NCBI GenBank assembly: GCA_963674965.2
Contig: CAXXFL010000006.1
Span: 864,001 to 928,000, forward strand
DNA length: 64,000 nucleotides
From: a bacterium
GTDB taxonomy: Bacteria > RBG-13-61-14 > DATKZS01
Direction of reading: 5' to 3'
Shown: piece by piece, positions 13,904 to 35,630 of the stretch
Position numbering within the stretch: the first letter of the stretch is position 1
How the letters are laid out: every line of letters begins with the position of its first letter
The notes under the pieces: model-generated
The model's input: only the letters and a program-made list of their open reading frames with translations
The model's database searches: none
What the model was told of the DNA's origin: nothing
Made by a program: the position numbers and the translations under genes

Positions 13904-15157
13904 ATGGCAACGGTTTTTCGGACCTTCAAGTCCAAAAGGAACCCGGCGACCGGGAAGCGCGTCCCGGTCCTGGACGCCAAGGGACGTCCGATCCCGCATG
14001 AGCGCTGGCGATTCGAGTACACGGATTATCAGGGCAGGCGCCGGACCGCGAGCGGGTCCGCGTCTAAGGCACAGACAACGGCGCTGGCGGCGCGGGTCCA
14101 GGCGCGGGAGGACGAAATCAGACGCGGTTTCCGTCCGGCTCCCAAGCGCGAGGATGAGCACGCCCTCCGGCCTATTGAGAAGGTCATTGAGGAATACCTC
14201 GATTATGGCGCGGCCTGCGGAGGCCTGCGGGGGAAACCTTGGGGCCCGGTCCATCTCCGGCGCAAAGCCGCGACCCTCGAATGGTGGGTGGGAAAGCTCA
14301 ACTTGAAGGTGCTCGGGGACTTGAACGGCAACATCCTGGCGCGGGTCGAACAAATCCTCCGCGATTACCACCGAAAGGGCCGGACGGGGAAAACCTGCCG
14401 CAATCAAGCGGAAGCGTTAAGGAGTTTTTGCCGATGGTGCGTGAAACTGTCCTACCTGGGCCAGGATCCATTGCAGAGTCTTTCTCAATACGACGCCAGC
14501 CCGACCACTATCCGGCGGGCATTCACGCCGGAAGAATGCGAAAGACTCCTCCTGGCCGCTCCTCCCGACCGGAGACTGATATATGCCGTAGCGCTTGCCT
14601 CTGGCCTTAGGGCGAACGAGATTAGAAGCCTGCGGGTCATGGACCTCGACGTCGTTAACAAGGGGCTCCATCTTTCCGAGAACTGGACCAAGAACCGGAG
14701 GGGCGGCTTCCAACCTCTGCCCCTGGACCTGGTGGACCAGCTTGCCCAATCAGCGCGAGGCAAGGACGTTGCCGCGCCCCTTCTGTTTAATGCCTCACGG
14801 CGCGATTTTACGCGACTGATGGACGACGACCTAAAGGCGGCGGACATCAAGAAACGCGGGCCAGGCGGTGTGGTGTGTTTCCACTCACTTCGCCACAGCT
14901 TCATAAACATACTCTTGGAGCAGGGCGCCGGCGCCAAAGAGGTGCAGGACCTGGCGCGGCACCAGACGCTCAGTATGACCATGAACCACTACGCAAAGTC
15001 CAGCATGAAGCGAAAGCGAGAGTTAGCGGAAAAACTGGGGGAAACCATTAATATCCCGGAACTTCCCATAACCGGTCCGGAACGGAAAGTGGTGGGTCTT
15101 GAAACCCATGATTATCATGAAGGAATTCTGGCTCCCCGGAAGCAACTCTCTTCATAA
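13904..15157 (+). CDS. Tyrosine recombinase/integrase
   Basis: GLRANE, WTKN, FHSLRH, LARH and HY catalytic residues. Confidence 0.92.
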   Translation: MATVFRTFKSKRNPATGKRVPVLDAKGRPIPHERWRFEYTDYQGRRRTASGSASKAQTTALAARVQAREDEIRRGFRPAPKREDEHALRPIEKVIEEYLDYGAACGGLRGKPWGPVHLRRKAATLEWWVGKLNLKVLGDLNGNILARVEQILRDYHRKGRTGKTCRNQAEALRSFCRWCVKLSYLGQDPLQSLSQYDASPTTIRRAFTPEECERLLLAAPPDRRLIYAVALASGLRANEIRSLRVMDLDVVNKGLHLSENWTKNRRGGFQPLPLDLVDQLAQSARGKDVAAPLLFNASRRDFTRLMDDDLKAADIKKRGPGGVVCFHSLRHSFINILLEQGAGAKEVQDLARHQTLSMTMNHYAKSSMKRKRELAEKLGETINIPELPITGPERKVVGLETHDYHEGILAPRKQLSS

Positions 15158-15350
15158 CGTTCTATTTTGGAGAAAATATCAAAAAATGTAGGCGCCGATG
15201 GGAGTTACACGCGAGTGGGGAAAGAAAGCCGGTGAGAAATAATTTAACGAAGGTTTCCCAACTAAAAGACTAATTGAAGGGGTAAAGGAAATGCCGGAGG
15301 TCCATTTCTCCAGGAAAGATTTCGGCGACTCCTTCGTAACTCGTGGCCGC

Positions 15351-15939
15351 GACCCATTATCGAAGCGCACCGTGTACGTCCCCGCGTCCAGCGCGCCCGC
15401 CACGGACAGCTTGAGAGTGTCGCCCTCCTCGAGCTCGTCGGACCAGGTGTCGCCGTCGCCGAGGGTCAGCTCGCCGATGGCGCTCTCGGCCAGGAGCCGT
15501 AGCCGCGCCGCGTCCAGCTCGGGCGTCGCCGAGTCCCCCTCTCCCGGCCCGCAGAGCACGGTCTCGCCGCTCATGACGGAGGTCACGCCGTCGCACAGCC
15601 CGTCGCCGTCGGTATCGGGATTCAGGGGATTGGTGTAGAAGTAGCCCGAGTTCAGGTATTCCTCGAGGTTGGTCCTCCCGTCGCCGTCGGGGTCATCGGC
15701 CGCGTCGTCCACCAGCGGGTCCAGCCCGGCCACGACCTCCCAATAATCGTCGATCCCGTCCCCGTCCGAGTCGGCCAACCTCGGGTCCGTCCCCAGCCTC
15801 GCCTCGATAATCGCCGCCATCCCGTCCCCGTCATAATCCGCCACCGCCTCATCGCACTCCACCACCACCGGATCGAACCCCAAGCTATCCGCATACTCCA
15901 CCTCCCACCAGTCCGTGAAGCCGTCAAAGTCGGAATCGG
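15351..15939 (-). pseudogene. Orphan paralogous fragment of the giant toxin lipoprotein (pre-core region)
   Basis: Aligns with 18594-19186, near-identical centrally ([19 protein letters not shown]...[14 protein letters not shown]) and diverged at the ends; lacks the Rhs core. Confidence 0.88.
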
Positions 15940-16734: not shown

Positions 16735-16813
16735 CCTTCTCGCTATGCTCGCCCATATAGCAGAGCTATATGGGTTACTTATATTTTATAACCCTTTTGT
16801 GGGTTACCTGTTG
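16731..16813 (+). repeat. ~82-bp direct repeat, copy 2
   Basis: See copy 1; GGGTTAC occurs three times here. Confidence 0.9.
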
Positions 16814-16838
16814 GGTTACATCTAAAGCTACCCGCTTA

Positions 16839-17387
16839 CTATTTTTCTCGCGCTATTGGATTTCTCAAAACCTCTTCACAATTAGGGCATTTTACCATTG
16901 GATACCCAAGAGTGTCCTCCCATGACTCAGTACAGATCGGGCACATAACCCAATGATCTGCAAGAAGATTTGCAGGTGGTTTCGAATTGTCCAGATAGGC
17001 TAATTTCCTTATTTCCGCCCTTTGCATAAGAGTTCTCATAGGTTCTGGGTAGTCTTCTCCATCCCATATTCGTGAATAAGCCTCAGGGCTTTTAGAAATA
17101 ATTTCAGGCCCATAAATCACTCGTATATGATCATTAAAAACTTTACATACCCAATCATCAGGGATTGAAAAGTCGAAAATATCAAATAAGAATAGTGGCA
17201 ATGCACTTGCTATCGCTTCACCTACCAATAAAAGCACTTTACAAATACCATTATCATTAATTGTCAAGGCATGCACTTCATAATCATTGTCTTTCTTGAT
17301 TGGAAGAACTGTTTTCTTTGAGTTATGTGATACCATTAAGTACCAGTCAGAATTTTCGTAGTCAGTTATTTTTGCTCTTACAATCAT
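16839..17387 (-). CDS. Putative immunity protein (C-terminal CxxC...CxxC Zn ribbon)
   Basis: ATGA-coupled to the toxin stop codon; low GC like the toxin tip. Confidence 0.65.
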
Positions 17388-20300
17388 TTTTTCATACCTT
17401 TATCATCTACGATTTTAAAATCATCCATTTCAAGCGTATTTTCATTATATACGTAATGGACGTTAACGTCACCGTAAGGACTTTTATGTACATACTGGTA
17501 TTTTTTCCATCCATCTTTTGCATCCCATCTACCATCTCCCATTGGACATTCTTCTATCCAGTCTCCTTTTCCTGGATTGGCCATTACCTCATCAATAGCA
17601 AGTTTCTCCCTTAAATTTCTTGGCGCATATCTTCCTTTTGATGGATTGATAGTTGAACCGCGGCCAAGAGGACCTTTCGATACGCTTGTTTCTGCTGCAA
17701 CTTCACTTTCTGCGGCAAGGCCTTTCCCAGAAATAGATTTTGCGCCTTCCGCAAGCATATATACACCCAGGCAAGTTCGAATGGTGTAATAAGCCAGATA
17801 GTATGATTGTTCTTCTTCTGGAAGAGCCATAAAATCGTCATATATCTTATCATAGTTCTCTCCGATATAAATTGCTGACTCACCCATGTCGATAATATCC
17901 TCAATAATCACCCCTATTGCGCTTTGCGATCTGTTTGGATCTATAGAATCAAGGACACCTTTAGGTATATCAATAATGCTATCTCCAACGCCCCACATAG
18001 CCCAGCCAGTGTTTTTTGCAATTTGGACGGCAGCTTCATCCGATCCTGTTGGTCTAAGAGAGCTTTTCGAAGCCCAATCTGAATATCCAGGCTCTCCCGC
18101 TTGACCACTTGCATCATTATATACAAAAGGGTTGTTATAAGCGTACGCGTATTGATTAAAGAACCCCGGTACCGGATCCACGCTCACGAACCTCCCCAGG
18201 TCCGGGTCGTACCAGCGGGCGCCGAGTTGGTAGAGGCCGACGTCATTATCTTGTCGGCGGCCGACGAAGCCGTGGGTAATAGCGTCGTTATTAATGGTGA
18301 TGGGCCGGTAGGGAGAGCCGGCGAAGTCGCCTCCGAAGGGGAGGTAGGCGCGGCGCCAGACGGTCTCGCCGTCGGAGTTGGTGGCGACCACCGGGGAGTG
18401 GAGACCGTAGTGGAGGTAGAGGCGCTGGGTGAGGTTGACGGTGGTCGTGCCCGAGTCGAGGAGGCTCGCGCCCGAGTCGTCGGCAATGTCCACCCAAAAG
18501 ATGCTTGTTTCATCGTCCCAAAGGTCGCTTATGTCCACGATAACATAGGTCGCGCCCTCGGATACGGCTACTTCGATCTCGTGAACCGATCCCGAACCGT
18601 TATCGAACCGTACCGTATAAGTGCCCGCGTCCAGGCTTGAGGTCACGGCCAGCCGGAGCACCGTGTCTCCCTCCTCAAGCTCATCCGCCCAGGTGTCGCC
18701 GTAGCCCAGGGTTATTTCCCCGATCCCACTTTCGATCATAAGCCGTAGCCGCGCCGCGTCCCACTCGGAAGTTGTCGAGTCCCCCTCTCCCGGCCCGCAA
18801 AGCTGAGTCGCGCCGTCCATAACGGTAGTCACGCCGTCGCACAGCCCGTCGCCGTCGGTATCGGGATTCAGGGGATTGGTGTAGAAGTAGCCCGAGTTCA
18901 GGTACTCCTCGAGGTTGGTCCTCCCGTCGCCGTCGGGGTCATCGGCCGCGTCGTCCACCAGCGGGTCCAGCCCGGCCACGACCTCCCAATAATCGTCGAT
19001 CCCGTCCCCATCCGAGTCGGCCAACAGCGGGTCCGTCCCCAGCCTCGCCTCGATAATGGCCGCCATCCCGTCCCCGTCATAATCCACCACAGCCTCATTG
19101 CAATTTACCACCTCCGGGTCGAAGCCAAGGGTGTTGGAGTACTCGACCTCCCACCCGTCCGTGAAGCCGTCAAAGTCGGAATCGGGGGAGCGGGGATTCA
19201 AATCGGACATGCAAAATACATAGTTATAATACATGTCCTCAAATAACGGATTGCCAAGATATGGATTACACTCGACAATATCAGTGACTTGATCCCCATC
19301 GGAATCGGTTGTACTTAAATTGGCGGACATGGGATCGAGGCCGTACTCTAATTCCCAACCATCAGGCAAATCGTCCGTGTCGCTGTCCATAAGTTCAGGA
19401 TAGGTGCCTAGGGCGTAAAGCTCCAGTCCATCTGAGAGGCCGTCCCCGTCGGTATCGTCCCAGTCAAGATGCATTGAAACCCACCAAGGGTTGTCGGCAA
19501 GATCGTAAAAAGGGCTTATGTAATAGTATTCTGTGAAATCATCGACGTAATCCTCATCTGTGTCGGGTTTGAATGGGTCACTAAAATAAGAATCCAATAT
19601 CCAACACTCTTGCATATTAGTCACTCCATCCCCGTCAGAGTCCTGCAATGTGTCCGAGACTAATATATTGGTTCCATAGTGATACTCAAAATAGTCATTA
19701 CAGGAATCCCCATCAAAGTCCCATGCGTCAGGTTCAGTTCCGAGTATATATGAAGTTCTTGCCTCCAAGATGCCATTATTGAGAACTTTATACGAATCAC
19801 CTTTCGTTGGATCCAGTTCAGGGTAGTAAAGTACCTCCCAGCCGTCCGGCATTCCGTCCCCGTCGGTGTCGGGGTTGGTAAAACTTGAGGAGTAAGTAGA
19901 ATACTCAACTAGATTGCTGAGACCGTCCTGGTCGAGGTCAGTGTACGCGTCGGAGGAGTCGTTCGGGTCAAGGCCAAATAGAGCCTCGTCATAGTCATCT
20001 ATCCCATCGCCGTCCGAGTCCACCGTTGTATCGGAGGCGTCCACGTAGAGTTCCTCGATATATAGCAGTTCGTCTTCATCCTGGTCCGCGAAATAGGATG
20101 GATTACCATAAGCCTCGGCCACGTTCATAAGCGAGTACTTAACGTGGTACACGTCGGTTGGGTCTTTTTCCACCCACATGACATGGAGATACTTTCTATT
20201 GGGACTGGCTTTAATCCTTGCCAGAATGGCCTGGTTTTCAGGGTTGGATATAAGGATCGGCGGTCGCCAAGTGGTGGAATCCAGCGGTAAGTCTTTGTAA

Positions 20301-23300
20301 TAATGGGTTTTTACTTCTTCGTTTGAGTAGAGAATGACCGACCTTGTCTGACCCGAACCCACGGGAGTTTCGACCACGGCTTTCCATACCGCGTGGTACC
20401 TCTCTCCAATTGTCTCGTCCACGAAGGCGACGGGCTTTTCCGTTTGTTTTACATAGTCCGGGAAATGGGAGATACTTTGCAACTCGATGCTATCCCAATC
20501 CTCAAGTTCATCGCCGTATCCATCCATTATGTCGTACTTGACCGTCCATCCATCTAACTCGCCCGTAAACGTAAATCCAGGCTGATGATTGTAGGCCAGA
20601 TATGGGCCAATCAGAGAATTCAAGTAATAATCTAATATCTTATATTTTCTAATCCAAGTTTGATCTCCCAATGATAAGTACATACTACAAGTTGAAGGGC
20701 CGCTAAGTTCCCATTCCAACCCCAGAGGGTAGGTATCTATTTTATCGACGGAATTATATTCAGAGCGCAAAGACCCCCATTCAACGTATGGATATGTTGA
20801 AGTATAGCTACTTTCAGGGAAATAATAATCATACGATATTTTTGAAGGGTCTGCGGCGTTGTTCCTTTTGGCCGCGAAAAGGAAATTACCCGTGAAACTG
20901 CCATAACCGGTGGTGTCCGACTCGCTCGCCAAGGCGGGGGCGAACATATCATCGAAGTCCCAGCATACTGGGATTATAGTAATCGTATCAGCATCATACA
21001 GGCAGACGCTGACTTTATTGGTGTCTCCCGCCGTTACGAAAGGCAAAGCGAAGAGATAGTCTTGGTCATTAATGTCCGAGGCGGCCATGAAATCGCCAGG
21101 CGACAGAACCCATTCGGCGATAGCCTCCCCCCTTTGATATTGGCCGCTGACCATGACGCTGTTTCCCTTAACGATCATCGTTTTATTGATCCACTGGGTA
21201 TTTCCATTTTCATAAGCGTAAAACAAGCTGACCAGGGTCGTCTCGCTTGGCGCTATGTCCGCTAAAAACGCTTCGTTTACCGTGCTACCAACGGTGAATT
21301 CGACGGACATTTGGGGATAGGTCAAGCCGGATAAGGTATAGTAGTCGTCACTGGGATCGGAGACGCTGTTCCCGATATTAATCTCCACTCCGTCGGGGTC
21401 TCCTCCTCCGTCCGTGTCGAAGTTGACGGGACTGGTGAACGTTACATAAAGTTCTTGATAGTCGGATAATCCGTCGTGATCCGTGTCGGCCAGAGTGGGG
21501 TTGAGGTCGCAGGCCGTGGCTCCTCCAATGCACACGTTAATATAAGGGTGGTAGGCGGTGCTTCCATCGAAGGAGGTATCGCCGTCAAAGGAAATTTCCT
21601 GTAGGTCGGTAAGGCCGTCTCCGTCGGTGTCGTTGGAACTGGGGTTGGTACCGAACCTGTACTCCCAGATATTGGAGATGGAGTCCGAGTCGGGGTCGGC
21701 GGTCAGGTCATCGTCCACCGTGGGATGTAGGTACATAAGTTCCCAATAGTCCCCAAGGAAGTCTCCGTCTGAGTCGCTCGAGAGTGGATCGAGGGCGTTG
21801 GCGTCGTCGCAAGTGCCGCCGCAAGTCTGATAAGGCTCAAGGAATAATGCGCAACATTCCTCAATATTAGTAATGCCATCGCCGTCAGAGTCAACTTCGG
21901 CGTCTTTCACCAGGGGATCGAGACCGACGGAGACCTCCCAATTGTCATCCATCCCATCATGGTCCGTATCCTTGTGATAGGGGTTGGTCCCGGCCAGGTA
22001 CTCGCCCAAGGTGTTCAGGCCGTCCGAGTCGAAATCCTGGAGCGTGTCGCTGGTGATGGGTCCCGTGTTCCATATGCGCTCCCATCCATCGGGGAGCAGG
22101 TCGCCGTCGGTGTCAACTCTGCATGGGCTGGTCTCGGTATTGCCGTCAAGAGCGCCGTCCTGGTCCATATCCTCAAGGCCGTCGGGAATGCCGTCTCCGT
22201 CAGAGTCCTGATTGCCGGGAGAGATCGTGCATCCAATTCCGACGGTAAAGCCATATAGCGCCTGGGTTTCAAGGTAATCTCTGATTCCGTCGATATCGGA
22301 GTCCGCGCTTCTGGGATTAATGGAGAGTTCGTATTCCTGGAGGTTGGTCAGGGTATCGCCGTCAAGGTCGCCCGTCGAGTCGTCAATCGTGGGGTCCAGG
22401 CCATAAAGGATTTCCCAGTCGTCCGGCATGCCGTCGGAATCGCTGTCCGTGGCGCCAGGCAGCGTCCCATGAAGGTACTCTGTCCGATCGCTCAATCCGT
22501 CCTGGTCAGCGTCCGCCGCGCATGAATTAAGGACGAGGATACTCAAGTTATTCGTTAATTCCCATCCATCGGGGAGACCGTCTCCATCGGTATCCATATT
22601 ATAGGGATCGGACTCCGTAGCGTCCACGACGTAATTGCCATTTACGTCCTCCCCGGTGGACCCGTCGTTTAAAATGCCGTCTCCATCCATGTCGTTAAAC
22701 ACGTATATGGGCGGCTTGCCTTCATTAATCAGTTCCTGCTCGTCATCGACGCTATTGCCGTTTTTATCGCTTGTTCCGTTGGGATTCGTCATATAGAAAT
22801 ATTCGTCGCCGTCGTTATACCCGTCGTCGTCCGAGTCGTCATCTTGCGGGTCCGTGCCGAGGAGTAATTCCTCATAATCGTTCAGTCCGTCACCGTCCTC
22901 GTCGGCGAGACAAGGGTCGGTCTCGCCCGCGTCCTCTTCTACTCCGTCGGGTATGCCGTCACCGTCGGTGTCGGGGTTGGCCGGGTCGAGACAACCGCTG
23001 GACTGGGTCTCGAAGTAGTCCGAAAGATTATCATCGTCCGTGTCCTGCTCGATCGGGCTACAACGGTAATTCATAATGATCGCGCCGGTCATTTCGATTT
23101 CGTACCCATCATTAAGTCCGTCCTCGTCCGAGTCAGCGACGTTTGGGTTGGTATAGACCTTTAAGGTATGGCCGTCACTAGGGCACCCGGCGAGAGCGTC
23201 GCATGAGGCCCCCTTGTAGAGCAGGAACTCCTGGAGGTTGGTGAGGCCGTCGGAGTCCCAGTCCGTGTCCCCGTCCTGGACATGGGGATTCAGGCCCCAG

Positions 23301-26300
23301 AAGACCTCCCACCCGTCGTCCATGCCGTCGCCGTCGGTATCTGCCAGACATGGGTTGGTCTCCGTATCACCGTCAAGGACGCCGTCAAGGTCTATATCCT
23401 CGAGTCCATCGGGAATGCCGTCGCCGTCACTGTCGGGATTCGTGGGCACGATGGTGCAACCCATTCCGACCGTCAGGCCGTAGATGGCCGTGGTTTCCTG
23501 ATAATCGCTCAGTCCGTCGGCGTCCGTGTCGGTGGAATTAGGAGAAGTCCCCAGCGTTACTTCAACGCTGTCTATAAGGGAGTCTCCGTCGGAATTGGAA
23601 GTCGCGTCTCCCGGATCGGTGCCCAGTGCAAGTTCTTCCAGGTCGGACACGCCATCTTCGTCGCTGTCGGCAACGTAAGGATTAGTGCCGTTTTGCGCCT
23701 CGTATAGATTGTCCACTCCGTCGCCATCCGGATCGGCTATCGTGGCGCTGGACAATATAGTCAAAGCATCGAAGGGGTCCAGGGGATCAAGAGAGTATTG
23801 TCTCTCATAAGCGTCATTCATTCCGTCGCTGTCGCTGTCTGCCCGGCAGGGGTTGGTTTCTCCCTCATCAACCTCGAAATCGAGGTCGGCGTCCTCGCCG
23901 TTGGAGCACAATAAAGTGGAACCGTCATAAACGGAGGTGTTTCCATCGCATAATCCGTCTCCATCGGAGTCGGGATCGCTCGGAGATGTGCAATAGTCAT
24001 ATTCAGCCGCGTCGCCCAATGCATCGCCATCAGTGTCAACAAGCGTGGGGTCGGTGTTGGCCGTCATTATTTCGACGTAGTCCGATAACGAATCGCCATC
24101 CGTGTCCGTTAGTAGAGGGTTCGAACCGAAATCGACCTCTACACCATCAGAGAGATCGTCTCCATCCGTGTCTTCCTTGCAGGGATCAGTCTCGCCCGCG
24201 TCAACTTCCCCGTCATTATCCTGGTCCTCGCCCATGGTCCGACCGTCTATTAAGCCGTCATCATCCGAGTCGTCGTCGATAGGGCTTGTGCAGTAGCCGA
24301 TTTCCACGTCATCGTCCAGTCCATCGCCATCTGAATCCGCCAGCTGGGGATTCGTGTAGTTGTCCTCCTCGCTGGAGTTGATAACTCCGTCCCCGTCCGG
24401 GTCCTCGAGGTCGTCCGTGATGGAATTACTATCGCTGTCCGCGATGTAAGGGTCATATCCGTATTCGATCTCCCAAGCGTCGCTAAGTCCGTCGGAGTCC
24501 GAGTCGTCGTCGGCGGTGAAGATGAAATCTATTGCGTCCACGCCGGGGCTGCCGGCGGTGGATGAATGCACGGTAATCCGATGCCTTTTACGAGGCAACA
24601 GGACCTCTGTCCGATAATTAGTAGAGTTCTGGGAATTGAACTCGTCGATCAAGTCCTCCCAAGAGATGGTGAAACTCTTCTCCAGGCCCTTGTAATGAAA
24701 TAGATAGACGTCAAGGTCCGAATTCGTGTCGCCTGGAAGCAATTGCTCCTCGCTGGAAAAGAGTATCCATTCGTTTTCCTCGTCCATGGAGACGAGAGGC
24801 GGAGCGTCGCCGGCAGAGGCGATAACGGGTTCGGTCGTGATCGCGTAGCCCCACGCGTTATAGGTCCTGTCGTCGGCGTATCTCGTGGGTTGGAGGAGGA
24901 AGTAGTTATATCCGGACGTGACCGTGTCTCCCGAAAAATTATGATTGGAAAGGACCAGAACGTCGATATTGCCGTTACCGTCAGGCAAGGATACACCGGC
25001 GGGGATAACCGTAACGCCGGGAGAGGCGTTGGTTATCTGTTCAATCTCGTTATAGACGGCGGTGTCGCCGCTGAGCCTCCTATAAACGAAAAGCTCGGTG
25101 GAGACAGAGTCTCCATCATTGGAAAATCCGTCTATTCCGCCGTAATTCCCGTTGGAACTGAAGTAAATCGACTGTAATGAATCGTCGGCAATAACTGGAT
25201 AATCGTTGGTCACGGTGGACCCGGAATCAGTGACTTGGTGAACGCCCACTCCGTATTCCCCATAGTAGAAAATTTCATAGTTGTAGTCCGAGTTGCCGAC
25301 CGACGCGTCCCAGTCCTCGGCGGAAACGAACGCCACGTATTCGCCGTTGGTAGTCGAGGACAAGCGTGGATTAATTCCTTGCTGATGCAAAGTAGTGCCC
25401 TGGACGATATTTACACAGCCAATGGGGTATGGCCCTCCGACGTCACTGTAAGTACATCTGAGGAGTTCATAATGATCGAGCGTGTCGCCGGCTGAAGAGT
25501 TTTCCGTCCAAAAGAAGAAAATATTTTCATAGGAAAGAACGGCGTCATAATTTGGCTCGCCCCTGGTGTCCCCGAAAAGATCGCTGGTAGTGACCTGAAA
25601 CAGGCCCTCGCTCTCGTCCCAAAAATACAATTCTCCATCAGTGGACGTTTCACCGTCCTCAAGGTCCTGGCGAGACCAGAACACGGCCTGATCACCCGCG
25701 TTGTTGGGTGAAATACTATGGCTGGCGAGCGCCTGAGCGTCGTCGCGGCCCACGGTAAACGAGGTCAGCGCGTCCGTGGAATATCCGTCAACCGTCAGGT
25801 CGGTCCGGTAGACCTGAAAGACATTGTCGGTGGTCCCGTCCTGCGCCCAATAGAACATGTATTGGCCATTCCTCGACATGGCGGGAGCGAGGACCGTTGA
25901 CGAAAACAAGGGCATGGAAAGACTGGAAAGAGGCTTAAGCTCGTCGGTTATTTCCACGCCCATCTCGGAGCCGATCAAGTCGGTCCAGTGGTCCATGGTT
26001 ATGCGGACCTCGTCCACGTCCGGCGTGGCCCTCACGGTCAAGTAGCTCTCCGAGTACGCCGCTTTATGATAGGAATATGTAACTGGTTCGTCGATAACGA
26101 CCGGTCCGACGCGCCCTTTTACTTCATAGACCTTAACGTATGTGGGATGATCACTGTAAAAGCCGGCGTGGAAAACGTCCCGCTCGACGACGTCTTCCTC
26201 AAGTATTTGGAAGGTCGAGTCCGAGGGAAGAACGATGGCCTTGCCAAACGCGTTGATTGGGGGAGGAGAAACAAGAAGGACGTCCGATAACTCTCCGTCC

Positions 26301-27244
26301 ATTGAAATGGTCGCTCCCGAGCCTGGACCATAGGTAACGTCGTAATAGTTCTGAGGACGAGAGTAAATCCAAAAATGGTACTCGATATCGAGAGGCATTC
26401 CCGAGGAAGCGCCGATCTCGATTTTTCTGTTATTTCTGACTATTACGCTGGGATTGCCGATTGAAGGGCCGTCAAACGGGGCATGGAGATCGTCGTCGTG
26501 CCAGAAAACCTCATAGGGAATATAAGACAGGTTGAGAACAGGCTCGGAACTTCCAAGAGTAAACGTCGAGTGAGGAGGCATGGGCATGTATAAAAGGGAG
26601 TCGCCGGAAAGCCCCGAGCCGCTCGCCGGATAAACGTGGCTCAAAGTGGGATGTTTCGCGTTATTCGCGAAGTCGCGCACGATGAAATAATTGATTACGT
26701 CGCCGCTTGATTGATTCTCTTCCGAGTCATGGAATATCTTATCAATTACCAGTTTATACGCGAACGCTCCTTCATAATCGTCCATTCCGTGCCACAGCGT
26801 GTCATCGTCAACGAGGCCCACGTAGAGCTTGTCGCTATAGCCGGACTCGCACTCGGTCGTGGACGCCCAAATAGTACCGGTGAAATAAGCGCCGCTGGAA
26901 AGGGAGTCCCATGACTTTGTAAAGCAATAATCGAAGTTAAAGACGGATTGACTGGGAGTGAGGTAAGAATCGAAATTTGTAACGGTCTGCCCGTAAAGCT
27001 CAAGATCAGACAAGGTCACCGTGTCGTCGTCAACGCACCTGTCGAAAAACACCACGAGTCTATGCTGGTTGTCCTCCATGGACGGGTCCAGGATTTCCAC
27101 GTTCTTGCCGAGAGACATTACCTCCGTGTAAGCCGGGCCAAGTCCCTTGACAAAGCTGTTCTGATTGGCTCCACAGCCTACAATTACCGCCGCTAGAAAA
27201 AATATGACGAAGATCGCCGCCGCTTTCATTACCTTTAACTTCAT
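17384..27244 (-). CDS. Giant lipoprotein: TolB-like propeller, many DxDxDG (TSP3-like) Ca-binding repeats, Rhs-associated core and C-terminal toxin
   Basis: Probable start MKLKVMK with lipobox VIVGC; dozens of NP..xDTDGDG..D..E repeats; YLPFGG...[17 protein letters not shown]...[14 protein letters not shown] followed by a low-GC ~240-aa tip. Confidence 0.88.
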
Positions 27245-27267
27245 GGCTTCGCTCCTTGTTTCCTTGC

Positions 27268-28083
27268 CTACTTGCATATCGATCGCTCGGCGTTCTCGGG
27301 ATCGAGAATCAAGAGGTGCTCGTTTAGCGACTCGAATAACTCCCTGGGGATACACTCCGATGAGACCGAAGAGGAAAGGGAGCGCCTGGTCGGAATGGTG
27401 GACTCGGCTAGCGCCTTCTCGACCGGAGAGACTAACGTCTCGCCCGTTAGCTTTTCAAGGGCCTCGGAAGCCGCCGTCTGGACAAGGAGCGACGCGTCGG
27501 TCTTCATGGCTAACTCAAGGGGGGACTTGAACTCGATGTAGCCGCTCGCCCCCAGTGAGCGCGCGGCCGAGGCTCGGACCACCGCGCTCTTATCGCGAAA
27601 TAGGGCCTTGCGGAGAGGCTCGAGGGAGGCAACAGCCGCCGCTCGGTCTTCCTCGGCCTTGCTTAGTTCGGCCAAGGCCGCCGCCGCCAGGGTCCTTGTG
27701 GCCAGGTCATGATTATTATCTCCACCTTCGAAAATATCGGTGAGCGAATCAATGGATTCATTAGCCTCAGCCTTGTTTTTGGAAGAGGCGAGTCCGCGTA
27801 TTTTCGCCCGCAGATTGGTTTCTCCAACGGGGGAGCGTTGTATGCCCTTCCTCGGCTCTTTGCGCTCGGTTGCGGTATTGGCGGGGACAGCCCGTTCTTT
27901 CACCGATGAGGATGAAGCTTGTTTTCCTGAAACTGCCGCGCCGGCGTCGCCGTCCGAGCCGGTCCTATCCATTCCTTGGCCGCAGCCCATGGAGGCCGCT
28001 ATGAATATTGAAAATAGAAACGCCAACGCGAGGCCAGTGGCTTTGTTAATAGTGATCCAGTTCCAGCAAGATAACCTTTTCAT
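27268..28083 (-). CDS. HEAT-repeat lipoprotein
   Basis: Lipobox SMGC; HEAT-like [15 protein letters not shown] and [17 protein letters not shown]. Confidence 0.75.
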
Positions 28084-28106
28084 TTTATCCTCCTCTCCTT
28101 CTTCGA

Positions 28107-31100
28107 CTAAAACTGGGCCACCATCTGGCCGTTGGCGTATACGTACAACTTGCGGCTGATCAGCCGGAAGTCGCTAAGTCGGAAGGTCTTCTCGCATAGC
28201 ATTCGACCGCCTGGATCGTAGAAGTAGACAGTCGCCTCCTCCTCGGTCACCTTCAGGAATTTGTTTCCACCGGCGGTGTAATAGATTTTGACCTTGCCGT
28301 CGTCGGCGTCAACCAGCCGGTCGAAAAGATCGAAGCCGTACTTGTGCGTGGGCGTCTGGATAACGTTTCCACGAGAGTCGTGTACGTAATCTCCGATGGT
28401 TGGACCGTCAGTGGATGTATCACCGGCCTCCACAGAGGAGAGACGATTGAGATTGTCGTAGTAGTAATGATAGGACTCTGATGATCCCGGGTCCCATGTC
28501 AAGTCCTTAGATTCTCGATTACCTCTACGATCAAAACCATAGGCAACGTGCAAAAATGGCTCTACTGTAGTATTTCCAGCAAAATAAGACACATCGGAAA
28601 GATGCTGTTCCTTGTCGTAAGAGGCGTTAATTTTTAAAGCGGGTGCGCCATAAGGACCGATTTTAGCATTAAGCGGATTTAGGTAATTGTCGAAATTCAA
28701 GAAGGTGCCGTTGAAATAATTATAGCCGTATTGTTCTCTCCAATATGCGTATGCACCCGCTGGATTTATCAACATAATATCATTTGCAACGTCACTCCTG
28801 TCGGGAGACTGGGCTAAAGTGCGAATGTCTATCTGTGTTATAACGCCAAGGCCGTACAACTGATAAATGTCAGTTACCACGTCGTTTCCATAGCTAAGTC
28901 GCTTCAACGAGCCGTCAGGCTGATACTCTATGGCATCCATTATGTCATCGGAGCCGCTCTTAGCTATCGAGACCACCCTGCCTAGAAGGTCGCGAGTAAG
29001 GGTAATGGTCATGTCGCCGTCATAGTCCGACGACGTTATCTCGCCGTATTCGTTATAATCGTATTTAATATCGAAGTCGGCGTAATTAACTCCCATGGAA
29101 GTGGGGATTGTATAATGTATTGAAACCTCGTCAAGAAGAGGGGCCGAGTTGTTGTAATCGTAATCAATATCGTAGGAAACCTGGTTCCAGTCTCCCTCCT
29201 CCTTGGTCAGGCTGCCCGATCCCGAGTGATAGGTAAACTTGTAAAGAGGCTGATTGACGCCAACGGCCTGGATTTGCGTCACCCGATCGGCTCGGTCATA
29301 AGTCATGTTAACCACCGCGTTGTCCGAGGCCCTGATCGACGTTATCCGGCCTCTAGAGTCGCGCGTGAACCTCCTCTGGCCGGACTCGGGACTGTATGTG
29401 CCGATAACGTTTCCCTTGGCGTCGTAAGTGAATTCACGGTCCCCAATGCCGGCCCCGCTCTCCTCGGATATGGAAAGAAGCTCGCCCTTTGAGCCATAGT
29501 TATATTTAAACTTGCGAGGAGTAGGCCCGCCGCTCACGATCGGACCCTCGCGTTCCGTCATGTATAGTTCTCCCGGACTCGGACCCTTATAGATTTCCTT
29601 ATAACTGGTGGCGTAGGTTTCATGCTTACAAAGATACGAGCCGGAAACGCAGTCCACTGTAATATCGACTTCCAAACCGGAACTACCCGCCGCTCCATAC
29701 TCGTACGTTACGTACCTGCCGAACTTGCCCGATTCTCCAGTCTGGTCCGTTGAAAAAGCCGGTCTGCCAAAGGCGTCGTGGGCGCTGATGGATAGCGCTC
29801 CAATTGGATAGCTGTTATCGTCAATGTTTTCCGAGGTCACGGGCGAAAAAATATTCCTGGGCGCGCCGCATAAATCGCGCTCAACAAATTGCGCGAGAGT
29901 GTAGCCGTCGTCCGTTTCAACCTCGGTTTTCCAAGTCCTCCCCCAACCGTCGAGGTATTCGGTTAGCTCGCGACCGCCCGTAACGCTCTTTCGTTGTTTG
30001 GCGTAATAAAAATGATTGAGGTTGCCTTGGGAAGGGCCGTCAGTTGTGCTCGTGCCGGCCAAATAAGTTATCTCCGTGTCCTCGATATCACCGGGACGGA
30101 TAATGGACTTGAGACGACCAACGTTGTCATAAACGTATTGATATGAGAGCTCGTCGCCGCCGGCGTTAGGCACCGTTATTTGGGTCGCCTGTCCTAAAGC
30201 GTTATACGTCAAATCACCCGTCAAAGCTTCATCATAAAGCTTCACGGTCTGGGGGCGACCATTAACATAATCCTCGTACGCGTTTTTTACCGAGTCGTCG
30301 CCCGTGGCGTTGGTTACGTTTCCACCTGAGTCGTACTCCAGGCTTAGAGCGCTCATGTCAACCACTGAGGCCTGGAGGAGGCCATTAGTCATGTCCGTTC
30401 TGTACGTTCCAAGGTTGCCCGCGCCGCCGTTCAGGCTGGAGTCCGCGTTAGTCGTCACGCCGATCATGTAGGTGTCCCCGCTTACCTGGGCCTCGTGACT
30501 GAACTTGTAATTGCTCGTCCTCGAATAGCCCCCTCCTCCATCCATATATGACAAGACTTTCCCGGGGGAGTTATATATATTGAAATCGCTCGCCTCCATG
30601 TGATAGGTAACGCCGTCGCGAATAATTTGCACGCTGGAAATGGCCGGAATCGTGGGAGTCGGATCGATAAAATGTCGAGATAAGCCGCCAACGTCCCTGT
30701 CATAATAGACGTGGTAAGGAGTTGAAGAGCTCGAATTGTCGGATATCAACCGGATGCCATGCAAAAAGGGAGAGGGCAGACCAATCCAATTATATTCCAC
30801 GTCACTCAATGAAAAACTATCGCCACCGTCTCGAACGCCAAAAGTCTTTAATGCTTTAAGAAGATGCACGCGCCAAATCGAGCCGTTCTCGTTTATAGAG
30901 GGAGTGTCATAGTAATAATATTCCTTTTTCACGGAATGGAAGTGATTTTTTATATCCGTTTCGCCAGGCACGTAATCGGCGAAACATCGCAATATATGAG
31001 GATCATCGCCGTCCATCAGCTTGTCGATTTCTATCGTGGTCTTCAAGGTGCCCGCCTGATCTCCCGTGCCAACCCTCTTCATCGCGCTGAAAGCGTCAAA

Positions 31101-32681
31101 CCTGGCCCTTGCATAGGTCTCTGTCCCGGTTCTTATATAATTGGTTTCATATCGTTGATACGCGGAATTCCAGATTTCTATAGTGGGAAAATAACTGTTC
31201 CCATATAAAATCTGCGGATCATATTCAACCACGGTGTAGCTATAGGATACGTCGGCGCTCCATGGGGAGACAATTCGCTTCACGTCGCCTATATAACAAC
31301 TAATAACCACATCGCCTCCCAAGCATTGTTCATCAGAAAAACAGTATTCAATTTGCCGGTCTCCACAATATGAGACGCAATCGCAATATCCATTATCTCC
31401 AACTCCATAGAACGTGGCGGGCTCGAAATGCCAATGATCAGAAACTATATCGGGATCAAGATCGGTTGGAATACTGTTGCCGAATTCAACGACGGCCGCC
31501 TGGTCCAAAACGAAAGTGTCCACTAGTTGATAGTCGCTGGGGCCAACGTGGTGCAACGGGACATCGTTATCATAAAGAGGAGTATAAAATGATTCAGGCA
31601 CCACGTGGTAAATATAATAACGGCTGTAAAGAAGCGTTTCGTTTTGGCTGACCTCAAGCCTTTTAAGCTTTCCCGCCGGCCGGTTGGTCTTACGACACAC
31701 CAGGGTGTTTCCGTTCATGCATTCTATATTATTATATTGCGATATCTGGCTTGACACGTCCTCGTATTTGAAGTCGACTTTATAAATGGTATTGCCCGCT
31801 CCCTCGAGAGTCACTTTTTCAGGCATATTATAGAAACCGTAAATCGCCTCTTTATCCTCCTCAAGGTAATCTATGGTAACTTTAGAACCGTTTGGATAGT
31901 CGACCTCAACAAGCTTTAGCCTTACAGGTTCCCACGGCGGTGGAATATGACCCGACGTAAGCTTGTACGTCTTCTTGGTTCCATCAGGAAGGAAAAGGCG
32001 GGCTTCCGTTTGTATAAAAGGCGTAGACCACCCTTCAGCTTTTGCGATATTTTTAGAGATAGCCTCAATCCTCCAGTTATTGTCCGAAAAGTACAATTCT
32101 TGCCTGGCTTGTACCGTGCTTCCCGCCGGATATGGGTAATTATCTTGAGGAGTGACAATTTCCCAGTAATCCCCCCGCCAAGCGCATCCCGTGCCCTCGC
32201 AGGCGTTGAAATGATAAAGCTCGCCGCCCTGGGTTAATAAATATGCGTGCAAAATATCTCTAATGTATTCAGGACGCGTCTCGAAATCATAAAAACTACT
32301 GTAATGGAAAACAATGCGTTCGTTCATCACTTCCCAATTTAGACCATAAGGGGTTGCGGACTCCCGCCCAAGGAGAGTATACATGAAATCATCGGTCGCG
32401 GTGGGATCGGATCTACGTATAATGGAAAAACCATATCCCCCATCCGATCCGATAGTCACATCCGCAAATGCAAGGTGGGGAATTCCGGTCATAGTGTCAA
32501 TGTATTCGAAACTGGAAGGACGGTAATATTCCCTATATGGCGACATGAATTCCAACGTTCTTCGATAGTCATACTCGATTGGATTCAAAGTACCTTCCGC
32601 CATTACCTTCGCGCTTGGAATAACAACTACCGCCAGCGCCGCCATCAAGATTACCTTTACACTTGCATACTTCAATTTCAT
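28107..32681 (-). CDS. Secreted YD/RHS-repeat shell protein lacking the Rhs core
   Basis: GGAGGT RBS, Sec-type signal MKLKYASV...VMA; YD repeats (YDSGGNV, YNALGQ, YDNVGRL, YDAKGNV, YDRADRV, YDNLNRL); ends YVYANGQMVAQF. Confidence 0.85.
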   Translation of the reverse strand: MKLKYASVKVILMAALAVVVIPSAKVMAEGTLNPIEYDYRRTLEFMSPYREYYRPSSFEYIDTMTGIPHLAFADVTIGSDGGYGFSIIRRSDPTATDDFMYTLLGRESATPYGLNWEVMNERIVFHYSSFYDFETRPEYIRDILHAYLLTQGGELYHFNACEGTGCAWRGDYWEIVTPQDNYPYPAGSTVQARQELYFSDNNWRIEAISKNIAKAEGWSTPFIQTEARLFLPDGTKKTYKLTSGHIPPPWEPVRLKLVEVDYPNGSKVTIDYLEEDKEAIYGFYNMPEKVTLEGAGNTIYKVDFKYEDVSSQISQYNNIECMNGNTLVCRKTNRPAGKLKRLEVSQNETLLYSRYYIYHVVPESFYTPLYDNDVPLHHVGPSDYQLVDTFVLDQAAVVEFGNSIPTDLDPDIVSDHWHFEPATFYGVGDNGYCDCVSYCGDRQIEYCFSDEQCLGGDVVISCYIGDVKRIVSPWSADVSYSYTVVEYDPQILYGNSYFPTIEIWNSAYQRYETNYIRTGTETYARARFDAFSAMKRVGTGDQAGTLKTTIEIDKLMDGDDPHILRCFADYVPGETDIKNHFHSVKKEYYYYDTPSINENGSIWRVHLLKALKTFGVRDGGDSFSLSDVEYNWIGLPSPFLHGIRLISDNSSSSTPYHVYYDRDVGGLSRHFIDPTPTIPAISSVQIIRDGVTYHMEASDFNIYNSPGKVLSYMDGGGGYSRTSNYKFSHEAQVSGDTYMIGVTTNADSSLNGGAGNLGTYRTDMTNGLLQASVVDMSALSLEYDSGGNVTNATGDDSVKNAYEDYVNGRPQTVKLYDEALTGDLTYNALGQATQITVPNAGGDELSYQYVYDNVGRLKSIIRPGDIEDTEITYLAGTSTTDGPSQGNLNHFYYAKQRKSVTGGRELTEYLDGWGRTWKTEVETDDGYTLAQFVERDLCGAPRNIFSPVTSENIDDNSYPIGALSISAHDAFGRPAFSTDQTGESGKFGRYVTYEYGAAGSSGLEVDITVDCVSGSYLCKHETYATSYKEIYKGPSPGELYMTEREGPIVSGGPTPRKFKYNYGSKGELLSISEESGAGIGDREFTYDAKGNVIGTYSPESGQRRFTRDSRGRITSIRASDNAVVNMTYDRADRVTQIQAVGVNQPLYKFTYHSGSGSLTKEEGDWNQVSYDIDYDYNNSAPLLDEVSIHYTIPTSMGVNYADFDIKYDYNEYGEITSSDYDGDMTITLTRDLLGRVVSIAKSGSDDIMDAIEYQPDGSLKRLSYGNDVVTDIYQLYGLGVITQIDIRTLAQSPDRSDVANDIMLINPAGAYAYWREQYGYNYFNGTFLNFDNYLNPLNAKIGPYGAPALKINASYDKEQHLSDVSYFAGNTTVEPFLHVAYGFDRRGNRESKDLTWDPGSSESYHYYYDNLNRLSSVEAGDTSTDGPTIGDYVHDSRGNVIQTPTHKYGFDLFDRLVDADDGKVKIYYTAGGNKFLKVTEEEATVYFYDPGGRMLCEKTFRLSDFRLISRKLYVYANGQMVAQF

Positions 32682-33268
32682 ACCTCCCAGATATGCGCTT
32701 AAAACTGATCCCTGGCCTTCACGACACGAAAAGGCGCAGGGAGAACAAGCAAAGCTTTCCCCTTCGGTCAAAATAGCCGGGATAAATAAATTGGATTTTC
32801 GATCTCCGCTCATGCCCCAAATTACAAGCCTCGCGTCCGAAGACTCTCCCCAAGAGTCAAGACTGGACTTTAACCGCCGTAAATGAACTGGACGGCTCTT
32901 TTCCGTTCCTTATTATTAATGGTGAGCATTCAGGAGGGCTTGTGTCGGTCTTGGTGCTGTTGTTCCCCCCACGCACTTATAACTTATATTTATATAACTT
33001 GATCGCGAATCGTAGCAAAATGTTGTAATCAAGTCAAGATAGAATATTTGAAAAGATTGTGCCAACCTAAATTGTGTTACCAATACAGATAGTTATAATT
33101 TATTAGAAACCCCTGGTCTGCGCCTTCAAGAGCAATGTCTTGATAAGATACTGTCACTGCTGTTTGAATGTATAAGTGCCCTGTTCAAGGTAATGCGAGC
33201 CTCCCCGCGGTTAAAATGGAGTATCAGGCTTTTTAAGGCCGTCACCCAAACCAGACAAGGAGGCTTGC

Positions 33269-34294
33269 ATGAAAGATTATCATTATGTTGGGTTGGATGT
33301 CCACAAGAAGAGCATTGCTTTTTGTGTGAAGGAGGCGGACGGTCGGATCGTTGAGGAGGGCGAGATCGGGGCTACCCGTCGGGAGTTGGCGGCGTGGGCC
33401 GAGGGTCGAGATCGGGCGTGGAACGGGGCCATGGAGGCGACGATGTTCACGGGTTGGATCTACGATTTTCTTTTGCCTTACGCTGAGGACCTCAAGGTGG
33501 GTCACTCGTACATGTTGCGGGCGATTTGCGCGTCGAAGAAGAAGAACGACCGGGTTGACGCTCGCAAACTGGCCGACACCCTTCGCTGCGACTGGTTTCC
33601 CGAGTGCCACATGGCGCCGCCGGAGATTCGCGAGCTGCGCCGGGTCTTGCGCTACCGCAACTTGCTGGTTCGGGAGGCGGCCAAGCTCAAGACCAAGACG
33701 GCGGGACTGTTGATGGAGGTCGGGGCCGAATACGACAAGAATCGGCTCCATGGCGAGCGCTATTTCGAGGCCCTGCTCGGGAGTTTGGAAGACGTGCCGG
33801 ACTCGGTAGTTGAGTTGCTCGAGTTGACCCATTCGGGGATGAGGATTTTCGAGACGAATCAGAAACGGCTGGTTAACGCCTTGGTCGAACACCCGGTCCT
33901 GGCCGAGAGGGTAAAGCGGTTGATGACGATCCCCGGGGTTGGACAAGTAACCGCTCTGACCTGGGCGCTCGAAATCGGCGACCCGCATCGCTTCACTTCC
34001 GTGAAAAAAGCGCAGAGCTATTGCGGCCTGTGCAGCGCCCAAAACGAATCGGCGGGCAAGAGCAAACGCGGTCCGTTGTCCAAGCAGCGCAACAAACATC
34101 TTCAAACCATGCTGGTCGAGGCGGCCAAGCTCGCGCCTCGATATAACTCCCAGTTAGCGGAGGTTCACGAAAAAGCCCGGGCCGGAGGCGCTAACCGCAA
34201 CCGCGCCACTCTGGCCGTGGCCCGCAAACTGGTGGCGTACTTGTTGTGCGTGGATAAAACCGTGAGGCCCTTTGTGATGGCCGACGAAAATTAA
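33269..34294 (+). CDS. IS110-family recombinase (DEDD RuvC + Tnp domain)
   Basis: GLDVHK, MEAT, KNDRVDA, IPGVG, YCGL...ESAG. Confidence 0.95.
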   Translation: MKDYHYVGLDVHKKSIAFCVKEADGRIVEEGEIGATRRELAAWAEGRDRAWNGAMEATMFTGWIYDFLLPYAEDLKVGHSYMLRAICASKKKNDRVDARKLADTLRCDWFPECHMAPPEIRELRRVLRYRNLLVREAAKLKTKTAGLLMEVGAEYDKNRLHGERYFEALLGSLEDVPDSVVELLELTHSGMRIFETNQKRLVNALVEHPVLAERVKRLMTIPGVGQVTALTWALEIGDPHRFTSVKKAQSYCGLCSAQNESAGKSKRGPLSKQRNKHLQTMLVEAAKLAPRYNSQLAEVHEKARAGGANRNRATLAVARKLVAYLLCVDKTVRPFVMADEN

Positions 34295-34296
34295 TC

Positions 34297-34496
34297 TCCG
34301 ATCGCGCGCCACCCGCCGGTCCTCGCCGATTTTGGACTGGGCGACCCCGCTTCGGCGGGAGATGCTCCCTTACTGCTGTTTCGAGGCCGGCGGGATGATC
34401 CAAACTCAATCTTCGGCGATGGCCCAGGCCTGATGCCGCAAATGGATGTCTGGTCGCCCTCGGGGTCGGCCAAGGTCAAGAGGCGCGGCGATCGAA
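34297..34496 (+). ncRNA. Putative bridge/seek RNA of the IS110 element
   Basis: Closing stem 34299-34310/34482-34494 and stem 34312-34325/34382-34394; four 8-9 nt segments match the target and donor junctions. Confidence 0.8.
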
Positions 34497-35547
34497 AAGA
34501 AAATGAGTTTATCGCTTTGAGGGCCTACGGCCGGGACGAAGAAAAAAGGGCGAAGCAAATCCGCCCCGCCCGGCCGTCTGGACACCCGCGTCGGCGCTCA
34601 GGTTGCTCTCCAGCGGAGCCCTATCCTCCGCGCGGGCAAAAAGGATGATAGCATGAGTTGATCAGCGGATAAATCGTCGATGAACGGGGAGCCTCCCACT
34701 CCCCTTGACAAACACTTATCATGGAGGTCGCCCTCGGGGTCGGCCAAGGTCAAGAGGCGCGGCGATCGAAAAGAAAATGAGTTTATCGCTTTGAGGGCCT
34801 ACGGCCGGGACGAAGAAAAAAGGGCGAAGCAAATCCGCCCCGCCCGGCCGTCTGGACACCCGCGTCGGCGCTCAGGTTGCTCTCCAGCGGAGCCCTATCC
34901 TCCGCGCGGGCAAAAAGGATGATAGCATGAGTTGATCAGCGGATAAATCGTCGATGAACGGGGAGCCTCCCACTCCCCTTGACAAACACTTATCATGGAG
35001 GTCGCCCTCGGGGTCGGCCAAGGTCAAGAGGCGCGGCGATCGAAAAGAAAATGAGTTTATCGCTTTGAGGGCCTACGGCCGGGACGAAGAAAAAAGGGCG
35101 AAGCAAATCCGCCCCGCCCGGCCGTCTGGACACCCGCGTCGGCGCTCAGGTTGCTCTCCAGCGGAGCCCTATCCTCCGCGCGGGCAAAAAGGATGATAGC
35201 ATGAGTTGATCAGCGGATAAATCGTCGATGAACGGGGAGCCTCCCACTCCCCTTGACAAACACTTATCATGGAGGTCGCCCTCGGGGTCGGCCAAGGTCA
35301 AGAGGCGCGGCGATCGAAAAGAAAATGAGTTTATCGCTTTGAGGGCCTACGGCCGGGACGAAGAAAAAAGGGCGAAGCAAATCCGCCCCGCCCGGCCGTC
35401 TGGACACCCGCGTCGGCGCTCAGGTTGCTCTCCAGCGGAGCCCTATCCTCCGCGCGGGCAAAAAGGATGATAGCATGAGTTGATCAGCGGATAAATCGTC
35501 GATGAACGGGGAGCCTCCCACTCCCCTTGACAAACACTTATCATGGA
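34452..35547 (+). repeat. Four tandem, apparently identical 274-bp copies of the IS110 right end
   Basis: Units start GGTCGCCCTCGG at 34452, 34726, 35000 and 35274, and end TTGACAAACACTTATCATGGA. Confidence 0.95.
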
Positions 35548-35630
35548 TGTCCAAAATAGGACGGACCTTGCCTTTGCCCCATTATAAAACGGGGATTTAG
35601 ATGGTCAAGCTATGGGTTTTCAGGTTGAGG

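Follow-up and report, generated by a model that had tools for sequence, protein, structure and literature searches.

The nearest known kind of protein to the system presented here is the single-chain Rhs/YD toxin, exemplified by the T6SS (type VI secretion system) proteins RhsA (7q97), Tse15 (8uy4), RhsP (8h8a) and S. bongori Rhs (8qjc), and by the Sec-dependent WapA. Two gene products build the YD cocoon of the toxin complexes (Tc), in which core and toxin are on the second of them (TcB-TcC; 4o9x, 6l7i, 4igl). Bacterial teneurin-like proteins (TLPs) are lipoprotein-anchored toxins packed in a shell and made as single chains (PMC13018210). In this work we have analyzed a stretch of 64,000 nucleotides (the window) from a bacterium of the GTDB lineage RBG-13-61-14; DATKZS01 (assembly GCA_963674965.2, contig CAXXFL010000006.1, positions 864,001–928,000), in which we consider it slightly better than an even prospect, judging from the sequence, that four genes form an operon for an Rhs-type polymorphic toxin split over two polypeptides, the cage of which would be assembled in trans. 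The features are collected in Table 1; coordinates with a C prefix refer to contigs of this genome and all others to the window.

A core-less shell and a core-bearing lipoprotein

The shell gene lies two genes upstream of the gene for a giant lipoprotein that bears the Rhs core, with a HEAT-repeat lipoprotein gene (HEAT_2, 45.3 bits) between them. The original prediction had proposed this order, and both the map of open reading frames (ORFs) and the family matches agree with it. The shell protein ends in ...KLYVYANGQMVAQF* and the profile scan found no Rhs_assc_core match on its 1,568 residues, so that the YD protein does stop at the point where canonical Rhs proteins enter the core. RHS_repeat and YD_repeat_2x each matched it once (RHS_repeat with 35.7 bits, cut-off 22), and among YD-repeat proteins it is divergent; a phmmer search with the whole shell had no match among PDB sequences, and in the ESM Atlas its residues 70–700 fell among weak Rhs-like clusters.

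The piece that the shell lacks had been placed at about 18104–18430, at the end of the giant, and this is where it is found. Rhs_assc_core (TIGR03696) matched giant residues 3006–3085 with 55.5 bits (cut-off 32.5) and, since the canonical lead-in strand begins at about residue 2978, the core spans positions 18101–18424. When compared with solved sequences, the last 371 residues of the giant matched 24 distinct ones (Rhs, TcC, teneurin-like and SGS) in their core regions. In an alignment of 24 cores of this genome, D-x-x-G has an invariant D and G, and S-x-D-P a nearly invariant D; D3060 and D3081 of the giant, located by alignment, we take to be the self-cleaving catalytic aspartates of the Rhs/TcC literature. 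As anticipated, there is no YD shell on this protein, which had no RHS/YD family match and no match to a profile of the shell family (within this genome the profile matched shells only, and no giant or orphan cassette). A search for carriers of the core, covering proteins of 1,827–5,816 residues, gave 32 non-self proteins matching this region of the giant, and 31 of them have YD-shell families on the same chain.

The DxDxDG repeats that had been noticed on the giant correspond to TSP3_bac, the thrombospondin type 3 family (64 bits, seven stretches), with 54 D.D.D motifs arranged in two long blocks, on a protein with a lipobox cysteine at residue 61. A propeller had been proposed as well, which we could not confirm, as no Pfam family matched giant residues 62–940 at E ≤ 1; the N-terminal 963 residues match only themselves. 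After the core comes a tip of 238 residues, and the stop of the giant overlaps the start of a downstream ORF of 182 residues in an ATGA, these being the toxin tip and the coupled immunity-like gene of the original prediction. The other junctions are also tight: the HEAT gene starts 23 nt past the shell stop, with a strong ribosome-binding site (GGAGAGGAGG) in that gap, and AAGGAG follows the HEAT stop as a good ribosome-binding site for the giant start at M38.

Sec or lipoprotein signals had been claimed for all three large genes. They were assigned by eye (MKLKYASVKVILMAALAVVVIPSAKVMA from M47 for the shell, ...AAVIVGC from M38 for the giant and ...AASMGC for the HEAT protein), and those of shell and giant agree with the protein starts in the database (1,522 and 3,286 residues), so the claim stands to the extent of these by-eye motifs. 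From five Omp85 matches we infer that the organism is a diderm. Short-read contigs (two runs, one sample) had no differences across the HEAT–giant junction (24189–27313) or the giant–immunity junction (16757–18209); the two runs possibly represent the source sample itself, and for this reason the junction matches are not independent support. Separately, in a marsh metagenome run from another study (X4), two contigs of 151 nt each are identical to sequence at the 5' end of the giant gene (26725–26875 and 27039–27189), and the source organism or a very close relative may be present there at low depth.

Table 1. Position of the split Rhs-type system in the window (locus A), of the regions of its giant protein, and of the two further loci in the genome
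Feature	Position	Strand	Remarks
Core-less Rhs/YD shell gene, locus A	28107–32813	-	ORF of 1,568 aa; likely start M47 at 32675, giving 1,522 aa; C-terminus ...YVYANGQMVAQF*
HEAT-repeat lipoprotein gene, locus A	27268–28083	-	271 aa; lipobox ...SMGC; between shell and giant; in 3/3 loci
Giant TSP3-repeat lipoprotein gene with Rhs core and toxin, locus A	17384–27355	-	ORF of 3,323 aa; likely start M38 at 27244, giving 3,286 aa
First TSP3 D.D.D block	21476–24511	-	Giant residues 949–1960; TSP3_bac; CglD-like, 313.6 bits (cut-off 400)
Second TSP3 block	18806–20086	-	Giant residues 2424–2850; orphan cassettes begin within it, at about residue 2737
Pre-core domain	18425–18805	-	Giant residues 2851–2977; no Pfam family at E ≤ 1; retained in all orphan cassettes
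Rhs-associated core, including YLPFG	18101–18424	-	Giant residues 2978–3085; TIGR03696; predicted catalytic D3060 and D3081
Variable C-terminal toxin region	17387–18100	-	Giant residues 3086–3323; no known family
Immunity-like gene	16839–17387	-	182 aa; start overlaps stop of giant; C-terminal CxxC...CxxC; no signal peptide
Truncated orphan cassette	15179–15901	-	240 aa; 85% identical to giant residues 2737–2921, then cut off
Locus B	C6:748616–763775		Identity to locus A: shell 59%, HEAT 72%, giant 62%
Locus C	C2:63536–80060		Identity to locus A: HEAT 98%, giant 77%; shell cut by IS110 insertion

Three diverged loci in one genome

Rhs cores were matched 32 times in the genome, which is 6.5 Mb long and 97.6% complete, and a BLAST search of the four proteins against all its ORFs revealed that the shell–HEAT–giant block is present three times, colinear in each case. 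Across the loci, identities range from 59 to 75% for the shells, from 72 to 98% for the HEAT proteins and from 62 to 77% for the giants, and one DNA match crosses both gene junctions (87.5% over 9.5 kb between A and C, 71% over 7 kb between A and B). All three shells share the same last 15 residues. Between loci A and B the ratio of nonsynonymous to synonymous substitution (dN/dS) is 0.18 for the shell, at a dS of 1.7, 0.27 for the HEAT protein and 0.20 for the giant, and in the last 100 codons of the shell it is 0.07 (dS 0.52). The arrangement has been duplicated, is old and is maintained by purifying selection. In locus C the shell has been broken into ORFs of 582 and 892 residues by an IS110 element at C2:65518–66534.

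Having three diverged loci with the same shell end means that the split is not a one-off insertion or a misassembly. The concern raised with the original prediction, namely that homologues might be continuous Rhs genes and the intervening DNA such an insertion or misassembly, was borne out in its first part only: five continuous relatives were found (see below), and the three loci contradict the second part. These data support a split that is real, precise and conserved. As a separate observation, the HEAT gene of locus A (27268–28083) and that of locus C (C2:69412–70227) are at a dS of only 0.015, compared to 0.5–0.8 in the flanking shell and giant, which suggests that the HEAT gene and the 3' end of the shell underwent gene conversion recently.

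Fold of the shell and its fit to the core

An AlphaFold2 (AF2) model of shell residues 369–1568 was poor overall, and the N-terminal 750 residues of the protein have no confident model; residues 813–1568 appear in it as an array of beta-hairpins, with a predicted local distance difference test score (pLDDT) of 60–94. Every top Foldseek match of this model was an Rhs, teneurin or Tc shell, and the Z scores from VIA-align were 19.5 for 8qja, 19.3 for Tse15, 17.1 for TLP, 16.0 for TccC2 and 14.4 for YenC2. The part of the model that aligns to Rhs shells covers its residues 445–1200 (Z 19.5, root-mean-square deviation (rmsd) 7.0 Å, 417 residues aligned).

The end of the shell was mapped on solved chains by fold alignment of the AF2 model, and the start of the giant's core by sequence alignment to the same chains (a global MAFFT alignment misplaced the last strand of the shell and was not used for mapping). 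The last residue of the shell model falls at position 541 of TccC2, 567 of YenC2, 566 of RHS2, 2034 of both TLP and TcdB2-TccC3, and 2625 of SGS1, and the alignment of the giant's core starts at 553, 598, 592, 2049, 2060, and 2648, respectively. Between shell end and core start there is a gap of 12–31 residues in all six structures, and no overlap, so that shell and giant together tile one canonical chain.

A relative in which shell and core are fused, L041 (1,045 residues, N-terminally truncated), could be modelled with a predicted template modelling score (pTM) of 0.71, residues 1–806 being mostly at pLDDT 70–95 and the toxin part below 40. Its best fold match is TLP (VIA Z 26.4, rmsd 3.8 Å, 613 residues), and residues 230–810 superpose on TccC2 3–664 and reach the ends of the solved cores, with an 8-residue loop of low confidence linking the shell end to the core. 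This fold marks the shell family as genuine Rhs cocoons that are plugged internally by a core, and the core is inside the shell in every solved structure that was matched. Judging from the L041 model, a non-covalent plug between shell and core is plausible in the split system.

Split and fused relatives

Real matches to the shell were found in none of 40 related genomes (two matches were at chance level), a word-based search returned only this genome's own shells as close matches, and a metagenome scan with shell patterns found none. Scanning species genomes with the core alignment gave 21 distant, ordinary Rhs loci, and a plasmid search one ordinary Rhs, 23% identical. An exhaustive profile search of 1.84 billion representatives recovered 857 proteins at E ≤ 1e-3, of which only eight were at E ≤ 1e-30.

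Three of these eight, P0075, P0076, and P0077, are core-less shells (E 1e-144 to 6e-95), 30–33% identical over the last 570 residues. They stop at the same residue as the shell described here, with the ends ...YVYANGRLVAQY, ...WVNGRIVAQF and ...YANGQVVAQF, that is, in VAQY or VAQF. As they come from three separate contigs, of 5.5 kb (P0075), 36 kb and 39 kb, a contig break common to all of them at one codon is not credible. The fused relatives are P0080, P0081, P0092 and two metagenome loci, L040 and L041, all with a continuous shell, core and toxin. They have the same shell end, followed by 8–12 residues and then by GFVGR...LGARWYDP...NNPF..D..G and the toxin; TIGR03696 matched all five, and the cores of L040 and L041 are 68–69% identical to the second half of the giant's core.

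In a tree built without P0092, L040 and P0079, the shell family stands apart from ordinary Rhs (100/100) and split and fused members are not sorted from each other, so nothing can be said from it on one or several origins. Overall, the system appears rare, represented by one genome and three metagenome shells.

Toxin tips and orphan cassettes

DNA homology among the loci A, B and C extends no further than the core's end, right before the 238-residue tip of the giant. Neither the tip nor the 182-residue immunity-like protein matched any Pfam family at E ≤ 0.001, and at E ≤ 5 there was only noise. In the ESM Atlas the tip resembles clusters of MafB-class polymorphic toxins at 0.92, with a low feature overlap that makes this a lead only. 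The 182-residue protein has weak zinc-ribbon matches only, and we assign its immunity role by position.

Complete orphan core–toxin cassettes were found behind the other two loci, five after locus B and nine after locus C (14 in total), together with three truncated ones. They begin inside the second TSP3 block or the pre-core domain of the giant (at about residue 2737 or 2888), never in the shell, and all go from the core to a different toxin and a small ORF. Among the small ORFs downstream of toxins, 7/16 match immunity-type families (SUFU twice, Imm11, DUF4304 twice, DUF4265, and Tdi1_C). A fragment like the truncated cassette next to locus A also closes locus B. It is clear from these cassettes that toxin swapping takes place in the giant gene.

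Two observations concern the region just after the core. Giant residues 3086–3230, the first 140 or so, are similar to what follows the core in the fused relative P0080, and one orphan cassette has a weak PT-TG match (20.3 bits, below cut-off); a pre-toxin linker may be shared here, before a small toxin of about 90 residues. More arrays of short Rhs core–toxin ORFs, with two other core types, are found elsewhere in the genome (C4:370011–380896, C2:10382–17363, C6:476329–480091, and C1:685326–689598), and no full-length Rhs gene was seen beside these four in the ORF maps.

Comparison with known systems

With single-chain Rhs toxins the locus shares the YD cocoon fold (VIA Z 15–19.5 for the shell, 21–25 for the fused member L041), the TIGR03696 core with both conserved aspartates, here on the giant and not on the shell, and a variable putative toxin right after the core, with an immunity-like gene and orphan cassettes. 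It differs from them in that shell and core are on separate polypeptides in three loci, with a HEAT lipoprotein gene between, and that about 2,900 residues of non-YD lipoprotein precede core and toxin on the same chain. Furthermore, the orphans recombine in the stalk gene instead of the shell, and there are Sec-type export signals and no PAAR, VgrG or clade domain.

As in the Tc BC cocoon, two gene products would build the YD cocoon, and it is the second that bears core and toxin. The last 500 residues or so of the shell (model residues 698–1200) align to the shell part of TccC2 (10–541, Z 16.0). However, TcC brings some 540–570 shell residues together with the core, whereas the giant has only a core of about 110 residues and no RHS/YD match, and the whole TcC-like shell part is in the shell protein. 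Tc B and C subunits are not known to carry export signals, unlike the proteins found here. A Tc link was set aside, given that the TcB families PF12256 (TcdB_toxin_midN) and PF03534 (SpvB) had no matches in the 97.6%-complete genome and their controls did match. PF18276 (TcA_TcB_BD) had no match either, a zero that carries no weight, as its control matched in no genome.

The likeness to TLPs (9ifo) lies in a Sec/signal peptidase II (SPII) lipoprotein-type anchor in Gram-negatives, a toxin in a YD shell, an immunity gene and an unknown delivery route, and the difference in that TLPs are single-chain (PMC13018210). TIP, FN-plug, NHL and other TLP domains did not appear in the general Pfam scan, which was not aimed at them, and only the YD part matched. 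Like the myxobacterial CglD and MtsD, which are lipoproteins made largely of TSP3 repeats, the giant scores with their family models (313.6 bits for CglD and 153.6 for MtsD), albeit under the respective cut-offs of 400 and 800, and the likeness is one of repeats only. Neither CglD nor MtsD is known to have an Rhs core or a toxin. The literature that we searched, including PMC3482391 and PMC13018210, showed no Rhs shell and core on separate genes besides TcB/TcC.

Proposed working and alternative explanations

If the system works in trans, shell and giant would both be exported by Sec, and giant core residues 2978–3085 would dock by beta-strand addition on the last hairpin of the shell, plugging the cocoon and leaving the toxin enclosed by a cage that another protein has supplied. 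The two core aspartates, D3060 and D3081, would then cut after ...NDASG. Thrombospondin type 3 repeats are established to bind calcium and stiffen, and those of the giant would do so outside the cell, so that a lipid-anchored stalk could present the loaded cage at the surface for delivery to neighboring cells. A cytoplasmic immunity protein would protect kin, and the HEAT lipoprotein would be a constant helper, acting as assembly factor, holding factor or tether. A further-reaching version of this reading, a contact-dependent device in which a free, Sec-secreted shell closes after export, with HEAT help, round the core and toxin of a stalk that is some 2,900 residues long, anchored by lipid and stiffened by calcium, we hold only tentatively and at somewhat less than even.

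Several points weigh against assembly in trans. The shell model is weak (mean pLDDT 53) and its first 444 residues are unmodelled, so that a closed cocoon is not established for the shell itself, and the fold alignments behind the tiling have rmsd values of 5–7 Å over 347–441 residues, which makes the mapping approximate. The fused relatives lack a segment of about 51 residues (LYLHYG...PFG) that is present in the giant, meaning that split and fused forms are not related by a simple cut. In P0081, TIGR03696 positions 1–15 align to the last strand of the shell, an ambiguity in motif homology by which the shell end could overlap the first hairpin of the giant in its role, instead of preceding it. 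P0075–P0077 are known here from shell sequences alone, and no homologue of the giant was found outside this genome. Finally, we know of no precedent for encapsulating a toxin after export.

An alternative that we find unlikely, yet far from negligible, is that the giant is a polymorphic toxin sufficient in itself, the core being only a self-cleaving release module without a cage, and the shell an accessory protein with another function, for instance as adhesin, as a container without contents, as carrier for other cargo or as entry helper. It would account for export signal, stalk, core, toxin and immunity gene all going with the giant, and for orphan cassettes that hold its pre-core region and no shell sequence. 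It would hardly lead one to expect a shell that stops exactly at the expected core point in three diverged paralogues and three foreign homologues, or gene order and junctions conserved as one block, or that the most constrained part of the shell should be its last 100 codons (dN/dS 0.07). The nearest fused relatives, which join the same shell family to the same core type, and the position of the core within the shell in every matched solved structure also weigh against this alternative.

The abundance of mobile elements (IS110 directly upstream of the shell, an integrase downstream, and the IS110 that interrupts the shell of locus C), together with the existence of fused relatives, could bring to mind an ancestral single-chain Rhs that the HEAT and TSP3 genes split when they were inserted, and of which the shell is a decaying relic. 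We regard this as improbable, given that shells A and B have stayed intact over 1,500 codons at a dS of 1.7 and a dN/dS of 0.18, retaining signal peptides and ribosome-binding-site coupling, and that core-less shells of the same family come from three other sources. That a false stop or a chimeric join parts shell from core is hardly conceivable, even if repeats and paralogues hamper assembly and short-read contigs break at the paralogous parts: the stop is at the same position in three independent copies and in the foreign homologues, the HEAT gene has a ribosome-binding site, start and lipobox of its own, and short-read contigs, possibly from the source sample and then not independent, match the HEAT–giant and giant–immunity junctions without difference.

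Genomic neighborhood

The absence of PAAR, VgrG and TcA genes from the window, which had been claimed at the outset, held for the 25 window ORFs that were scanned, although genes of contractile-injection type are found at 58–64 kb and a PAAR gene 4 kb beyond the window end. The former (58254–63965) comprise a 1,197-residue DUF4815 protein, a baseplate wedge BW3TFN protein and a Tail_P2_I protein, and may constitute an extracellular contractile injection system; the latter is an ORF of 88 residues (C6:931879–932091) placed after them. A link of these genes to the Rhs locus was set aside because they are about 25 kb away, behind defense and mobile genes, and because of the Sec-type signals, neighbors having been viewed at locus A only. 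The same was done with a T6SS link, as the two TssC matches are on a different contig and all three proteins have Sec-type signals.

Between both regions (40289–53389) there is a defense-island-like run with a STAND NTPase (1,158 residues), a DprA-like protein, an Eco57I/MmeI-type methylase (1,202 residues) and an SNF2 helicase with PLD (1,157 residues), which resembles a BREX- or DISARM-like system. Mobile genes flank the toxin locus on its two sides, namely a Prim-Pol/D5 primase and a tyrosine integrase downstream (10847–15157), and IS110, DDE and ISL3 transposases upstream (33269–37576), the IS110 being of the same type as the one in the locus C shell.

An ordinary single-chain Rhs of 2,900 residues (L013, C6:845874–858328) is located 6 kb before the window, with one orphan. 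It has transglutaminase-like, Big_7, CHU_C and DUF6531 domains, 14 RHS_repeat stretches (357 bits) and the core, and there is a HEAT-repeat protein nearby that is not homologous to that of the split system beyond the repeats.

Implications

In the Rhs-type cocoons of solved structure matched here, plug and toxin are on the same chain as the shell, or on a TcC that supplies half of it, which fits a cage forming round its own tail. If our reading is right, a core of about 110 residues and its toxin would come from a second exported protein, opening the way to tests of closing and loading in trans, of the core's own contribution and of shell reuse. The further-reaching version would also mean that one constant shell serves toxin tips that change by recombination in the stalk gene alone, in a delivery device distinct from T6SS Rhs proteins, Tc toxins, contact-dependent inhibition (CDI) and teneurin-like proteins, and that an Rhs cocoon can be produced separately from its cargo. 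Natural split points of this kind could be useful for the engineering of protein containers. For the polymorphic toxins, the system would add a delivery format in which a lipoprotein with a stalk of calcium repeats bears a caged tip.

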